The notes: generated by a model from the letters alone, not told the origin. A stretch of 24,000 bases of DNA from Abyssisolibacter fermentans (GCF_001559865.1 NZ_LOHE01000035.1:79134-103133); one strand, 5' to 3'; shown: positions 12,749 through 23,944, counted from the stretch's first letter. Translations and numbers: made by a program.

Positions 12749-12847
12749 CCCAAATTATTCATAGAAATCAAATACTTTTTATTAATAACCTCATTCTTCG
12801 AATGAATAAGCGATTTGCATAAAATCCAACAGTGACCATTTTGTGCA
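12749..12847. repeat. decayed copy of the hairpin-module element (left end plus one reverse-oriented module)
   Basis: CCCAAATTATTCATAGAAA (12749-12767) matches the left end of the 19877 element. 12789-12847 is a reverse-oriented module (GAATAAGCGATT core) with a 10-bp hairpin at 12816-12825 / 12838-12847. Confidence 0.6.
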
Positions 12848-14137: not shown

Positions 14138-14331
14138 ATATATAGAAAATTATAAACGCTTCATATAATAGTATATTTGGTAAGTGATAAGAATATATTT
14201 TTTATAATCACAGGTATAAATAGTCTGGGTAAATATCAATTAGAAAACTTTTTTCTGGTTATTTAGGTAGATATATTATATAATGATTGGAAATAATTAT
14301 ATAATCAGATAGTGATAAATTTATAGAAAGG

Positions 14332-16428: not shown

Positions 16429-16989
16429 ATGAATAACGAAGAAAAACTAATAAAACGAATAAAAAATAAATCAAATAAAACAGCAGCTAATCAACTGATA
16501 TCGATATATTACAAGGAAATATACATTTATGTATATAGACAAACAAGTGATAGAGAATTAGCTTTAGATTTAACACAAGAAATATTTATAAGTGTTTTAA
16601 AATCTTTAGATAATTACAGAAGAGATAAAGGATCCTTTAGAACTTGGTTATATAAAATAGCGAGTAATAAAATAGTTGATTACTATAGGTCTAAATATTA
16701 TAGATATTCAACTGTAGTAGAAAAGCTTGACGATTATGAGCTGAAGAGTTCAAGTAATATCGAGCTGGATTTAGAACTTAAAGAAGATATGAAAGAAATA
16801 ATAGAAATTATTAATAGTTTTGAAGCTAACATTCAGCAAATAGTAAGATTGAAGATTTTTGGTCAGTTGACATTTTCTGAAATATCGAAAGCATTAGAGC
16901 TTCCTGAATCAACAGTTAAGACCAGATATTATTCTAGCATTAATAAAATAAAGAAAATTTTGAAGGAGAGGGAAAATGAACAAAGATAA
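16429..16989 (+). CDS. RNA polymerase sigma-70 family factor, ECF-like
   Basis: Region 2 (DLTQEIFISVLKSLDNYR, FRTWLYKIASNKIVDYYR) and region 4 HTH (LTFSEISKALELPESTVKTRYYSSINKIK). Confidence 0.85.
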   Translation: MNNEEKLIKRIKNKSNKTAANQLISIYYKEIYIYVYRQTSDRELALDLTQEIFISVLKSLDNYRRDKGSFRTWLYKIASNKIVDYYRSKYYRYSTVVEKLDDYELKSSSNIELDLELKEDMKEIIEIINSFEANIQQIVRLKIFGQLTFSEISKALELPESTVKTRYYSSINKIKKILKERENEQR

Positions 16990-17728
16990 ATTAGAGCCTA
17001 GATTTGATTTTATTGACTCAGAGATAGAAACGATAGTTCAAAGAGGTGTTAAACCTAGAGTATCATTTTTGGGGCATATAAAAGATATGTACAGCCAGTT
17101 GGGAGTTAGAAATATATTTCATGATATGAGTGAGATAATTTTTATAGTGCTTATTGGTATAGTATTTTTTACATTAGCATTAGTCGTTACTAAAAATGAT
17201 AACAGTGTAACAATTCAACAGATATACAGTTTTATATTTGTTGTTTCACCTCTTTTATACCTAAGTATTTCATTATTTTCCTTTTTTAATACGAAACAAA
17301 AAAAGACTTTTGAGATAGAGATGACATGTAAGTATAACATATATCAAATATCTGCTCTTAGAATGCTCATATTTAGCATTGTCACCATTTTGATTAATAC
17401 AATCATTCTTTTTATATTTTTTTACTCAAGTAAAGAAATAGATGTGTTAAGAGTATTAATAATTTCGATTTCTTCATTGTTTTTATTTTCTTCGATATTT
17501 CTTTATGCAATAGTGAATATTTCATCATCATTGACTAAGTATTTTATTACATTAGGATGGATATCAGCAAATATTATATTAAATGCCTATAAGATAGATT
17601 TTTATAATAAGCTTTTGATAGAAGTTCCAATATTTGTACATGTATTAATAACAATGATATGTACAGCTGTATATTTAAAAAATTTAAAAAGACTTATTAA
17701 CTTCAAGAATATAAAGGGAGAGATTTAA
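16976..17728 (+). CDS. polytopic membrane protein, putative anti-sigma factor
   Basis: Overlaps the sigma gene by 14 nt, with SD GGAGAGGG. Soluble N-terminal ~50 aa followed by at least 5 hydrophobic segments. No HxxxCxxC zinc anti-sigma motif. Confidence 0.5.
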   Translation: MNKDKLEPRFDFIDSEIETIVQRGVKPRVSFLGHIKDMYSQLGVRNIFHDMSEIIFIVLIGIVFFTLALVVTKNDNSVTIQQIYSFIFVVSPLLYLSISLFSFFNTKQKKTFEIEMTCKYNIYQISALRMLIFSIVTILINTIILFIFFYSSKEIDVLRVLIISISSLFLFSSIFLYAIVNISSSLTKYFITLGWISANIILNAYKIDFYNKLLIEVPIFVHVLITMICTAVYLKNLKRLINFKNIKGEI

Positions 17729-18604
17729 GTGTTAATAGTAAATAATTTAAGCAAGAGTTTCGGAAGATTTTCAGTACTTGAAAATATAAAATTAGAATTT
17801 ACTAATGGTATATATGGATTATTAGCTCCAAATGGAGCAGGAAAGACAACTCTTATAAAACTGCTTACGACATTAATATTTCCTACGAAAGGAGAAATTC
17901 TTTATAACGGTACAGATATAAAAAAATTAGATGATGAGTATCGTGATATATTAGGATACCTGCCGCAAGAATTTGGATATTATAATAATTACAGTCCATC
18001 GCAGTTTTTGATGTACATAGCAGCATTAAAAGGACTAGATAAAAGCACTGCTAAGAATAGAGTAAAAGAGCTTTTAGAAGTAGTAGGACTAAAGGAAGTA
18101 GCAAATAAGAAAATGAAGAAATTTTCTGGAGGGATGATACAGCGTGTTGGTATTGCACAAGCATTATTAAATGATCCTAAGCTGTTAATATTAGATGAAC
18201 CAACTGCTGGACTAGATCCAAAAGAAAGAGTAAGATTTAGAAATTTACTAAGCAGTTTATCAAGAGACAGAATAGTAATAATATCAACTCATATAGTATC
18301 TGACATTGAGTTTATTGCAAATGAAATTATTATGATAAAAAAGCATAAGGTACTGTATAAAGATACTATAAAAAACATATGTAGAATATTAGATAATAAG
18401 GTCTATGAAACTAATATTGAGTTTAATGATGCTATGAATTTTAGAAAAAAGTACATAGCGTTATCTGAAAAACAAGAAAGCGGAAATATGTGTATAAGAT
18501 TTATATGTGAAGACAATGACGATAAAAAAGATGATTGGAAAGCAGTTACTCCAAACCTTGAAGATATATTTTTGTATGAATATAGAGATTCAATAGAGGA
18601 GTAA
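17729..18604 (+). CDS. ABC transporter ATP-binding protein
   Basis: Walker A APNGAGKTT, signature FSGGMIQRVGIAQAL, Walker B LLILDEPTAGLD. GTG start abuts the previous stop, with SD AAGGGAGAG. Confidence 0.9.
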   Translation: MLIVNNLSKSFGRFSVLENIKLEFTNGIYGLLAPNGAGKTTLIKLLTTLIFPTKGEILYNGTDIKKLDDEYRDILGYLPQEFGYYNNYSPSQFLMYIAALKGLDKSTAKNRVKELLEVVGLKEVANKKMKKFSGGMIQRVGIAQALLNDPKLLILDEPTAGLDPKERVRFRNLLSSLSRDRIVIISTHIVSDIEFIANEIIMIKKHKVLYKDTIKNICRILDNKVYETNIEFNDAMNFRKKYIALSEKQESGNMCIRFICEDNDDKKDDWKAVTPNLEDIFLYEYRDSIEE

Positions 18605-18607
18605 GCC

Positions 18608-19876
18608 ATGATTTATAAGATGTATGAGTTGAAAAAATCTGTATCATATCCGTTAATAGTGTTAATCTGTATATTTATAGGTTTTAACTTTTTATTAATA
18701 AGTGAAAAACTCTATGTAAGAGAAGAGCTTGATTCACTAAACAAAATAATAGACGAAGTTGGCTATAAAATAGATGATGAAATGTTAGAAAAACTTGATA
18801 AATATTATAACGATAAACTAAAAAAGTTTAACAATTTAAATCATAAAAAGACCAACAAAATTTATAAAAGTATAGACGATTTTTTTGAAAAAAACAAATA
18901 TCAAATTGAAGAAGTAATGGACGGTTATACGGATGAAGAAAAGGAATTACTTGATGATTTAAGGGTAATAGAGTTTTATTATGATTTGATAAATCCGTTA
19001 AAAGCTCAATATAAAAATATAGACATTATAGAGTTAGGCGAAGAGCAAATAGAAATGAATAAATTATCAGGTCAGGCAGCAGAAACAGTAAGAACTCAAT
19101 ATAGAAAATTTAATGATAGATTTTATGAAATAATTAAGAATAAAGAGCATATAAATTTATTTTTATTTGGCAAGAGTAATAGAATGCATTTATTTCTATT
19201 TAGAGACTTATTAAAAACTATAATGTTTGAAGTGATGATAATTGTAGTATTAATAACTTCTTATTTAATTAATTATGAATTTAATAATAAGACTTTCGTT
19301 TTGATTTACACTACAAGGAAAGGTAGGAATCTTATAAAAGACAAGCTGTTTACAGCTTTGATAATAAGTGTACTAGTTACAACGGTTATAATGGGTATTA
19401 CATTAGGAGTGTATTTTATTGTTTTTGATTATTCAAGGCTCTTAAATGTACCTATAAATAGTGTTTTTAATTGGGAATTGAAGACTCCATTTATGAGCTG
19501 GTTTAAAATGTCCTATGGTAAGTTTTTATTATGTTCTATAGGGCTGGTGTATGCTATAGAATTAGTTTTTGTAGGTATAGCTGTTGTTTTATCAGAGCTA
19601 ATAAGAAATAATTACGTAGTATTTTTTGTATTTTTGATTTTAGCAGGTATATGCTATATGCTTCCTTCGATTATACCAGGAAGTACAAAGCTTATATTTT
19701 TATCAGTATTAACACCTTTTTCACTTGTGTGGGGTTCAGTATTTTGGTTTATGGAAAGTGGAGCACTTACAATAATTAAATACTATGAACTGATTACACT
19801 AGGCGTTTGGGCTTGTATATTGATTATATTAATAAAACTATGTATAAAGAGATTTAAGCATCAAAATATATATTAA
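18608..19876 (+). CDS. ABC-2 type permease with a large N-proximal soluble loop
   Basis: N-terminal TM segment, ~170-aa hydrophilic region, then 5-6 TM segments. YTTRKGRNLIKDKLFTALI is shared with the next permease. Confidence 0.75.
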   Translation: MIYKMYELKKSVSYPLIVLICIFIGFNFLLISEKLYVREELDSLNKIIDEVGYKIDDEMLEKLDKYYNDKLKKFNNLNHKKTNKIYKSIDDFFEKNKYQIEEVMDGYTDEEKELLDDLRVIEFYYDLINPLKAQYKNIDIIELGEEQIEMNKLSGQAAETVRTQYRKFNDRFYEIIKNKEHINLFLFGKSNRMHLFLFRDLLKTIMFEVMIIVVLITSYLINYEFNNKTFVLIYTTRKGRNLIKDKLFTALIISVLVTTVIMGITLGVYFIVFDYSRLLNVPINSVFNWELKTPFMSWFKMSYGKFLLCSIGLVYAIELVFVGIAVVLSELIRNNYVVFFVFLILAGICYMLPSIIPGSTKLIFLSVLTPFSLVWGSVFWFMESGALTIIKYYELITLGVWACILIILIKLCIKRFKHQNIY

Positions 19877-20173
19877 CCCAGATTATTCATAGAAAATTAT
19901 GAGCAGGGAACTAAAATCTGTGATTTTATGTGAGTCGCTTATTCATATGAAGGAACTGAATATGAGATTCATTAATAAACATCCTTCTGATTATAAGATA
20001 TCCATTAAATTCTCGACATACCAACTTGGTATGCCTTCGAATCTAATTTAAAATGTACCTCAGACTCATTACTTCGTCTGAATAAGCGATTCACACTAAA
20101 TTAAAATTTAGGTTCTCTGCTCATAATTCAGAAACTTACAGCATATTATGGGGCGTTATATGAATAATCAGGG
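19877..20173. mobile_element. 297-bp non-coding MITE-like element carrying two inverted hairpin modules
   Basis: TIRs CCCAGATTATTCATA (19877-19891) and TATGAATAATCAGGG (20159-20173) match 14/15 as reverse complements. Flanked by ATTAA on both sides (19872-19876, 20174-20178). Internal modules at 19899-19966 (+) and 20058-20124 (-). Confidence 0.75.
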
Positions 20174-20189
20174 ATTAAGGAGAATGAAT

Positions 20190-21320
20190 ATGAAGGTAGT
20201 ACTAAACGAAATAAAAAAGATATTTAATATAAAAATGATTTCTTTGGTGATAATAGGAAGTTTTATGATGTATTATATATTTATCAGCTTTTATATAGAT
20301 TATTTTCCTAATGGGAGACCAGAAAGTGATTTTTATAATATATCAGTTAAAATGATAGAAGACTATGGTAATAATATGGACAGCAGTGAATTTAATAACT
20401 TCAAGGGTATTCACGCAGAAAAAATTAAAAAAGCAAATAAATATCTTACCTCAAAAGAAGAATTTGTAAAGGTAGGTATAACTACTTATAGTGCATTTGA
20501 AGATATAGATGTATATGATGAGGAGTTATATAACCTAATAAAAAAAGTAATGTTTGAAGAGCAAGTAGATGTGTTTTGGGAGCTTCAAGCAATGGATTGG
20601 CTGGTATATAAATATGAAAACAGTGAAGAGAAGGTATCTAAAAGTAGCCTAAATACAAACTATGAAGGCAGAAATAAACAACTAAAACAAAATAATAATA
20701 ATAATGATATTCTGCCGTATTTTGTTTTTAATAATTTTAATGATTCTGTACAGTATGTTATAGCATTGATATTATTGAGTGTAATATTTATGACAATACC
20801 AATATTTTTAAGAGATAAAAGAAATAAAGTAGAGTACATTCAATATACCTCTAAAACGGGCAGAAATTTATACAAGAAAAAGATAGCTGCAGCTTTGATT
20901 TCAGCATTTATGATTACAGCAACACAAATGGGAGCTTTCTTGATAATCTATTCTACTAATAATGTAAGTATGTATTTTAAGAGCAGTATAAATTCTATTT
21001 TCAATAAATTATTTTGGTTTGATTTGAGTTTTATGCAGTATATATATGTTATTGTTATATGTACATTTATATTAAGCTTTGTAGTTTCATTAATAACAGC
21101 ATTTGTATCAAGCAAAGTATCAAATTATATGGCTGCAATAGGGTTGCAGATTCCAATATATGCAGGGCTTATATTCTTAGTGCAAAGATATATAATTAAT
21201 GATTTGACAGTTATATATAAAGGTAAAGCATTAACATTTATTTGTTACCTAACACTTATTATAATTTCTACAGTGTTGGTTGTATTAAGATGGAAAAAGG
21301 AGAGAGCTATAGAAATATAG
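20190..21320 (+). CDS. ABC-2 type permease, paralog of 18608-19876
   Basis: YTSKTGRNLYKKKIAAALI and the same topology. I prefer ATG 20190 (SD AAGGAG at 20177-20182, 7-nt spacing). The track's extra 14 codons from 20148 read through the element's right TIR. Confidence 0.75.
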   Translation: MKVVLNEIKKIFNIKMISLVIIGSFMMYYIFISFYIDYFPNGRPESDFYNISVKMIEDYGNNMDSSEFNNFKGIHAEKIKKANKYLTSKEEFVKVGITTYSAFEDIDVYDEELYNLIKKVMFEEQVDVFWELQAMDWLVYKYENSEEKVSKSSLNTNYEGRNKQLKQNNNNNDILPYFVFNNFNDSVQYVIALILLSVIFMTIPIFLRDKRNKVEYIQYTSKTGRNLYKKKIAAALISAFMITATQMGAFLIIYSTNNVSMYFKSSINSIFNKLFWFDLSFMQYIYVIVICTFILSFVVSLITAFVSSKVSNYMAAIGLQIPIYAGLIFLVQRYIINDLTVIYKGKALTFICYLTLIIISTVLVVLRWKKERAIEI

Positions 21321-23260: not shown

Positions 23261-23944
23261 GTTGTTTCAAAATGGCAAATTTCTGCGTTATTGAAATATT
23301 TCACGACTAATCATGAGCAGCGAACAGAAATCTACGATTTCTAGTAAGTCGCTTACTCCTAGGAACGAAGTGAGTAGTGAGCTACATCTAGTACGCTCAT
23401 ATCTGTAAGCAGAGAACCCAAAATTCATTTTTGGAGTGAATCGCTTACTCAGAGGAAGAATGAGTCTGAGTTTCAAATAATATATAGCCTTGAACTTTAC
23501 TTATTTTGAAACAACCCAAAGAGATGTCTCAAAATAGCAAACTTCTGCGATGAGCAGCGAACAGAAATCTACGATTTCTAGTAAGTCGCTTACTCCTAGG
23601 AACGAAGTGAGTAGTGAGCTACATCTAGTACGCTCATATCTGTAAGCAGAGAACCCAAAATTCATTTTTGGCGTGAATCGCTTACTCAGAGGAAGAATGA
23701 GTCTGAGTTTCAATTAGTATATAGCCTTGAACTTTACTTATTTTGAAACAACCCAAAGAGATGTCTCAAAATGGCAAATTTCTGCGATGAGCAGCGAACA
23801 GAAATCTTTGATTTCTAGTAAGTCGCTTACTCCTAGGAACGTAGTGAGTAGTGAGCTACATCTAGTACGCTCATATCTGTAAGCAGAGAACCCAAAATTC
23901 ATTTTTGGAGTGAATCGCTTACTCAGAGGAAGAATGAGTCTGAG
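23261..23944. repeat. three head-to-tail copies (237-bp period) of a 230-bp TIR-bounded unit, each with two direct hairpin modules
   Basis: ATGAGCAGCGAAC at 23313, 23550 and 23787. GAGTCTGAG ends at 23470, 23707 and 23944. Left ends at 23261, 23523 and 23760; right ends at 23503-23515 and 23740-23752. 7-nt CCAAAGA linkers. Confidence 0.9.

Follow-up and report, generated by a model that had tools for sequence, protein, structure and literature searches.

Several families of short repeats have been described in the intergenic regions of bacterial genomes. Correia and RUP elements duplicate TA, and Correia elements are RNase III substrates. REPs are 20-40-nt units associated with RAYT transposases, and they lack a TIR/TSD signature. 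The MITEPye1 element of Paracoccus, which is IS1182-derived, forms a long hairpin when co-transcribed (PMC11578231), and the mobility of bcr1, a repeat of the Bacillus cereus group, is tied to the pentanucleotide TTTAT (PMC6542083). Among insertion sequences (IS), ISEcp1 of the IS1380 family has the IRL CCTAGATTCTACGT and 5-bp AT-rich direct repeats (PMC6061673). No description of an IS1380-derived MITE was found in the literature searched, the nearest case being the IS1182-derived MITEPye1 (PMC11578231).

The window (the whole stretch of 24,000 nucleotides of Abyssisolibacter fermentans DNA that was analyzed) carries a 297-bp sequence between two permease genes of an operon that begins with an ECF-type sigma factor gene. 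The host genome is available as a 4.79-Mb assembly with 28.8% GC, in 122 contigs and 98% complete. A sequence-only reading of the window had proposed that the 297 bp are a MITE-like insertion, and inspection of the sequence confirmed that all the features described in that reading are present at 19877-20173. The features of the operon and of the element are listed below, with coordinates in the window, strand and the basis of each assignment.

16429..16989, strand +: ECF-type sigma factor gene, first gene of the operon (Pfam Sigma70_r2 and Sigma70_ECF; NCBIfam TIGR02937, 97 bits, above cut-off)
16976..17728, strand +: 250-aa protein whose gene overlaps the sigma factor gene (ORF list; no Pfam or NCBIfam match)
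17729..18604, strand +: ABC transporter ATP-binding subunit (Pfam ABC_tran, 1e-29)
18608..19876, strand +: permease 1, 422 aa (ORF; TAA stop at 19874-19876, inside the left TSD copy)
19872..19876, no strand: left TSD copy, ATTAA (sequence; ATTAA/TTAAT is a minor recurrent class, 4/62)
19877..19894, strand +: left TIR, CCCAGATTATTCATAGAA (repeat search; 14/15 compared with the IS1380-clade end CCTAGATTATTCATA of locus L148)
19895..19972, strand +: two-hairpin module of about 80 nt, forward, in the left slot (76% identical to the array modules at 23261-23944; absent from the 162-bp core form)
19973..20050, strand +: central segment of the 162-bp core, with the hairpin at 20017-20033 (alignment of the 162-, 22x-, 23x- and 29x-bp forms)
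20051..20128, strand -: second two-hairpin module, inverted, in the right slot (element positions 175-252, 82-84% identical to the array modules on the opposite strand)
20129..20173, strand +: right subterminal region and right TIR (20156-20173, ...TTATATGAATAATCAGGG) (repeat search; kept in all aligned forms)
20174..20178, no strand: right TSD copy, ATTAA (sequence; the SD begins with its final two A's)
20177..20182, strand +: SD of permease 2, AAGGAG (7-nt spacing to ATG 20190; GAGGTGA or AAGGTGA at the same place in the orthologues)
20190..21320, strand +: permease 2, 376 aa, intact (ORF; N-terminus aligns with 379-aa orthologues)

The 250-aa protein is presumed, from its position only, to be a membrane or anti-sigma partner. 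The best NCBIfam matches of the ATP-binding subunit were to ABC-2 or DrrA-type ATPases, all of them under the equivalog cut-offs. Orthologues of permease 1 (loci L036, L037 and L038) have 425-427 aa and end in ...RFKKQDI*. The two permeases had been taken to be paralogous; they do share similarity, but only as distant paralogues, with 27% identity over 127 residues (E = 2e-9). Translation of permease 2 most likely starts at ATG 20190, 7 nt past the SD, and the product read from this codon, MKVVLNEIKKIF, aligns with MRIIINELKKIF of the orthologues. An in-frame ATG at 20148, within the element, lengthens the permease 2 frame by 14 codons (MGRYMNNQGLRRMN...) and has no SD ahead of it; gene callers could be misled by this codon, and a false permease 2 start may get annotated there.

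The TIRs CCCAGATTATTCATA (19877-19891) and TATGAATAATCAGGG (20159-20173) match as reverse complements at 14 of 15 positions, in agreement with the earlier description, and a repeat search extended the arms to 18 nt with 89% identity. The ATTAA found on either side of the element (19872-19876 and 20174-20178) had been interpreted as a 5-bp TSD. This interpretation holds, and coincidence can be discarded because exact 5-bp duplications recur in the family described below. Once the element and one ATTAA are taken out, the junction becomes ...AATATATATTAAGGAGAATGAATATGAAG, in which the TAA stop codon overlaps the AAGGAG SD as had been claimed; the empty form of this permease junction would read ...TATATTAAGGAGAATG. 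The long imperfect palindrome was recovered by the repeat search as inner inverted repeats at 19895-19917/20106-20128 (87%) and 19923-19955/20069-20101 (82%), and the central hairpin CATACC-AACTT-GGTATG is present at 20017-20033. The predicted RNA fold of the 297-bp element has an energy of -95.2 kcal/mol (z = -9.9), and none of 200 shuffled sequences was as stable. Rfam gave no match within 19000-21000 at E <= 1. The element has no transposase gene, its sole ORF being a 50-aa chance frame.

Comparison with other genomes supports the view that a MITE-type insertion with a 5-bp TSD split a tight cistron junction. The empty sites for the window's own locus come from distant relatives, the genomes G012, G028 and G016, whose orthologous operons have about 65% nucleotide identity to that of the window and in which the permease genes are adjacent, with no insert. 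Their junctions read ...CAAGATATATAGAAAGGTGAGTTGAATG..., ...CAGGATATATAGTGAGGTGAACAAAGTG... and ...CAAGATATAGCGAGGTGAAATAAATG..., respectively, with stop codon, SD and start codon within 13-14 nt, and they align with the window junction after deletion of the element and one ATTAA. The same 297 bp are therefore not carried by all relatives, since these three orthologous operons are empty. The sister species (G001, complete genome) lacks the operon at the DNA level, and empty sites of other copies were sought there by concatenating the flanks of 30 copies with exact duplications and searching them in its genome. All seven syntenic sites (7/7) were empty, with contiguous flanks, and several keep the target pentamer once. 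No conspecific assembly, metagenome contig, plasmid or phage carrying the window locus, either filled or empty, was found. Likewise, the predicted empty-site 31-mer had no match in a metagenome scan, and exact-protein look-ups with both permeases and with the 390-aa extended frame returned no record. The 297-bp element is a MITE: it is shorter than about 600 bp, contains no transposase gene, has TIRs and a TSD of fixed length, and belongs to a set of dispersed copies for which empty sites exist.

When the 297-bp element was used as a BLAST query, 116 matches were obtained in its own genome. The shared end CCCWGATTATTCATA, with up to two mismatches, was counted 572 times in the genome, where about 15 occurrences are expected by chance (12-23 for scrambled motifs). 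Pairing of termini that face inward gave 186 pairs, whose sizes fall into discrete classes of 34, about 60, 162, 220-230, about 255 and 280-300 bp. There are at least 179 two-ended copies, in addition to 214 unpaired termini, and the paired copies total 33 kb, which is 0.69% of the genome. This copy count is a lower bound, as a family terminus is found no more than 400 bp from 46 of the 244 contig ends, and the repeats of the family are a main cause of the fragmentation of the assembly. An exact 5-bp flanking duplication was observed in 62 of the 186 pairs, compared with 3, 9 and 0 pairs for duplications of 3, 4 and 6 bp. The TSD consensus is T-T-W-A-A; the 62 duplications include 36 of the class TTAAA/TTTAA, 14 of ATTAT/ATAAT and 4 of ATTAA/TTAAT, to which the window's copy belongs. 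Positions 6-15 of the termini are 84-98% conserved (565 termini), and the full-length relatives have 79-88% identity to the copy in the window.

This divergence and the distribution of the termini indicate that the family burst is old and lineage-specific. At one mismatch, CCCWGATTATTCATA was found 378 times in the host genome (0 for a reversed-pattern control) and 0-5 times per genome in 400 others of the order. A degenerate IS1380-type pattern had 228 matches in the host genome, 35 in the Clostridia genome G733 and at most 5 in any of the 399 further genomes sampled from the class. The terminal motif was at chance level in the sister species, and the element had no match in plasmid and phage collections. 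A slight excess of the motif in the genus g57 (genomes G115 and G130) was rejected as mostly chance, no transposase being found beside the sites. In the window itself, two termini at 12749-12830 and 14215-14229 (C35:91882 and C35:93362) are separated by 1,481 bp, point toward each other and have the gene of a 295-aa membrane protein between them. Their flanks show no exact duplication, and they are probably two separate remnants and not a cargo-carrying element.

Alignment of the size classes revealed a modular organization. The 162-bp core consists of the termini and a central segment with the CATACC...GGTATG hairpin, and about 130 copies of this segment are present genome-wide. A left slot holds the module in the 23x-bp form and the same module, inverted, in the 22x-bp form. 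In the window form, shared by the copy at C28:36764, both slots are filled, the left one by a forward module and the right one by an inverted module; only a few copies have the right slot filled. By class, 66 copies consist of termini only (median 61 bp), 30 of the core (162 bp), 58 of the core and one module (231 bp) and 11 of the core and two modules (291 bp). The copy in the window represents the largest of the modular forms, made of the 162-bp core and two inverted modules of about 80 nt, and it is a long palindrome because these two modules are inverted relative to each other. Three copies of about 290 bp (C38:21639-21929, C57:28247-28537 and C66:28363-28651) carry in the left slot, in place of the module, a GC-richer insert of about 129 bp (...GGCACAAGATGTCCCCCACCTCTATAGGTAGCGGGTACC...), which may likewise be a structured cargo.

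The same two-hairpin module makes up the tandem array at 23261-23944 of the window (76-84% identity). Across the genome there are about 225 modules, and 83 of these belong to paired elements. The orientation of the module relative to transcription is strongly biased, with 110 sense and 41 antisense cases in 151 co-directional contexts; outside TIR elements, 49 were sense and 17 antisense after array collapse. The central segment of the core was antisense in 42 and sense in 19 of 61 contexts, and the window copy is in the minority orientation. The orientation bias may be due to replication-strand effects or to RNA-level selection, and the modest bias of the core hints at some selection or a strand-specific process.

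The IS1380 family was considered as a source of the termini because they start with CC and the duplication is 5-bp and AT-rich. For comparison, NF033539-positive loci were taken from 300 genomes of the class, with 80 more from the genome collection. In the Bacillota IS1380 clade, about 58 of the 70 elements with detectable ends are about 1.65 kb, with the ends CCT[GA][AG]ATTATTCA[TC], and an exact 5-bp AT-rich TSD was found in 25 of 45, with none at 3, 6 or 7 bp. The termini of the element share 12-14 of 15 bases with the NF033539-positive ends and have the core ATTATTCA at the same offset. The L148 end CCTAGATTATTCATA agrees with the window terminus at 14 of 15 positions, and this exact variant occurs 12 times in the host genome. 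The conserved positions 6-15 of the element termini include those at which conservation of the IS ends is maximal (6-13). The genome G733 (Clostridia) provides a natural positive control, since an intact 1,679-bp IS1380-family IS (C76:1340-3018; L154 1244-2922; ends CCTGAATTATTCATG, TSD TTGAA) is accompanied there by an internal-deletion derivative of 276 bp that shares its ends (C46:25596-25871; L159 997-1272). This derivative, which retains a slice of the transposase gene, starts CCTGAATTATTCATAGAAAAC, compared with CCCAGATTATTCATAGAAAAT in the window element; the 35 termini of this genome are mostly at contig ends.

No intact IS1380-type transposase was found in the host genome. The NF033539 search of this genome returned one 21.8-bit fragment, and tblastn with nine transposases of the clade revealed only relics of 19-44 aa, at C50:15188-15319 and C45:9406-9526, with no convincing family termini nearby. 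These short matches may be relics of the lost autonomous element, and they are too weak and too short for certainty. A copy of the transposase may also sit in the unassembled part of the genome (122 contigs, with 46 of 244 ends in repeats). Long TIR pairs (0.8-3.5 kb) were considered as autonomous elements and rejected, as they contain ordinary genes and no transposase. The interior of the element had nothing in common with the IS set beyond the terminal 14-20 nt or so, and its ends could have been captured rather than left by internal deletion of an IS. Thus, of four features looked for in an IS1380 derivative, the element had the ends and the duplication but lacked internal homology and, in its genome, a cognate transposase. 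As judged from these sequences, the element would be assigned IS1380-type ends and target within an orphaned family, so called because no intact transposase of this type is in the genome. Since no such transposase remains and the copies are only 79-88% identical, the family is most likely no longer mobile, a remnant of an old burst that was specific to this lineage.

The genome also contains an intact IS1182-type element with a 508-aa transposase (C49:86319-88440) and a decayed second copy (C32:39786-40691). Both adjoin a 120-bp family member, which suggests a duplicated segment or repeated co-location.

The elements are largely confined to non-coding DNA, only 2.8% of their length lying under ORFs compared with about 80% coding genome-wide. 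Weighted target sites are 74% coding, yet 1.7% of the elements are in coding sequence, indicating that disruptive insertions were purged or that intergenic DNA is preferred. The sequence-only reading had attached importance to the exact placement of the element between a stop codon and an SD. This was not borne out: in 10 of 179 copies an entire stop codon fell no more than 2 bp from the edge of the element, either in the duplicated target or next to it, compared with 6.8 expected among non-disruptive target sites (P = 0.14), and special targeting of stop codons in excess of the target preference was not supported. Landing on a stop codon is explained by the preferred target, because TTWAA holds TAA in one or other orientation. 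The preservation of both stop codon and SD is automatic, because it is the ATTAA in TAT-ATTAA-GGAG that was duplicated.

The possible effect of the element on expression of the operon was analyzed by prediction. No terminator-like site was predicted inside the element, and its promoter-like matches were at background level (8 compared with 6.7 +/- 2.3). A partition-function calculation for the filled junction predicted a hairpin that pairs only with itself, and the GGAG of the SD is unpaired with a probability of 0.86-0.98, similar to that for the reconstructed empty junction; occlusion of the SD by the hairpin was therefore not supported. RNase III (rnc) is encoded in the host genome, and cleavage of the long duplex by this enzyme would be plausible given the predicted fold. 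Termination-reinitiation coupling is probably weakened, as the distance from stop to start increases from 13 to 313 nt. Since both permease genes are intact, the insertion was evidently tolerated, and we judge it to be near-neutral and not a selected regulator.

Taken together, these results make it probable that the 297-bp sequence is a MITE with IS1380-family ends that was inserted in trans, was tolerated as near-neutral and is now an orphaned relic. As selfish DNA it is of an ordinary type; what is unusual is where it lies. The TIR and TSD signature suggests that an IS1380-type DDE transposase supplied in trans would have recognized the CCCWGATTATTCATA termini and inserted the element into the pentamer ATTAA at TAT-ATTAA-GGAG, with duplication of the pentamer. 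The left ATTAA would then have retained the TAA of permease 1, and the right ATTAA would have provided the two A's of the AAGGAG of permease 2. The element would be co-transcribed and fold into a rod of about 300 nt that leaves the SD free, its long duplex presumably being open to RNase III.

A different explanation, the one put forward in the sequence-only reading, is that the insertion has been co-opted as an intra-operonic RNA element comparable to Correia, ERIC or REP/BIME elements. It would give the two permeases different levels through an RNase III cut or a 3'-exonuclease block, or would decouple their translation. The very stable fold (-95 kcal/mol, z = -9.9) exactly between two cistrons is in agreement with this, as are the presence of RNase III, the integrity of both flanking genes and the sense bias of the module (110 compared with 41, and 49 compared with 17 outside TIR elements), which suggests an RNA-level role somewhere. 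We nevertheless consider co-option unlikely, since the target preference accounts for the placement, neither terminator nor promoter is predicted in the element, the predicted accessibility of the SD is the same as at the empty site and the orthologous operons work without the element. Moreover, the window core is in the minority orientation with one module sense and the other antisense, so that no orientation-specific function of the module is favored. Somewhat more doubtful still is a proposal based on the modeled fold, according to which the base of the rod would set the permease 1 stop codon a few nt from the permease 2 SD, and coupling would be kept or the permease ratio tuned via RNase III; IS1380-type elements would then also be vehicles that take a transcription-oriented RNA module to the 3' ends of genes.

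The enzyme that moved the family could also have been of another type (for example IS1182, IS5, IS4 or ISH3), with ends that converged on those of IS1380. The genome does lack an IS1380 transposase and does contain an intact IS1182-type transposase, and a 120-bp family member lies beside both the intact and the decayed copy of that element. However, an IS1182-type parent was rejected because the only clear DDE_Tnp_1 gene (PF01609 match, on C49) has its own unrelated inverted ends, whereas 12-14 of the 15 terminal bases of the family are those of IS1380-clade ends, with ATTATTCA at the same offset and the same 5-bp AT-rich TSD. The piggyBac-type Pfam PF13843 had no match in the host genome, but the control search found nothing either. 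Movement by a non-IS1380 enzyme thus appears very improbable. Spread of a REP/BIME-like or IS200-related palindrome by a Y1 (RAYT/IS200-type) transposase is hardly credible, although about 11 Y1_Tnp matches were found in the genome, three of them long frames of 272-310 aa, and the module has a strand bias such as single-strand transposases produce. The element has TIRs and 5-bp duplications, which are not made by Y1 enzymes and which contradict REP/BIME membership, and its termini match IS1380 ends. A link between the module and Y1 transposases was not supported either, as only one of ten Y1 genes lies within 1.5 kb of a module, and only two lie within 1.5 kb of a family terminus. The Y1_Tnp loci are on C13, C38, C19 and C60 and at C90:207732-208067, C35:64301-64636 and C38:84998-85330; three copies of about 145-160 aa are 91-97% identical to each other.

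Read as a tolerated MITE with IS1380-type ends, the 297-bp element is a clear example of a TSD that regenerates a stop codon and a ribosome-binding site, and of an operon that absorbs a structured insert of 300 nt. It adds a family from an AT-rich Clostridia genome to the MITEs with IS1380-type ends. The burst was large (at least 380 termini), is restricted to a single lineage and has lasted longer than its transposase. If the hairpin alters the stoichiometry of the permeases, the locus would be a natural test case of MITE-driven operon rewiring.

Compared with the IS of the Bacillota IS1380 clade of about 1.65 kb (CCTGAATTATTCA ends), the element has the same CC start, the core ATTATTCA at the same offset and 12-14 of 15 terminal bases in common, and both duplicate 5 bp of AT-rich sequence such as TTAAA, TTTAT or TTAAT. 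It differs from these IS in having no transposase gene, a length of 297 bp instead of about 1,650 bp, an unrelated interior and no cognate IS in the genome, and in most copies position 3 of the ends is C and not T. The family resembles the bacterial MITEs (Correia/CREE of Neisseria, RUP of S. pneumoniae, ERIC and MITEPye1 of Paracoccus) in being small, non-coding, TIR-bounded, flanked by a TSD, high in copy number and intergenic, and in forming a long hairpin when co-transcribed. On the other hand, the parent families and duplications of those elements are different, and the family described here has optional RNA-like modules and is orphaned. As with the REP/BIME elements of Enterobacteria, its copies are abundant intergenic palindromes that can lie between operon genes and fold in the mRNA, but the element differs from these in its TIRs, its 5-bp duplications and its lack of association with the Y1 transposase genes of the genome. 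bcr1 resembles it in being a Firmicute intergenic repeat, of 100-400 bp.
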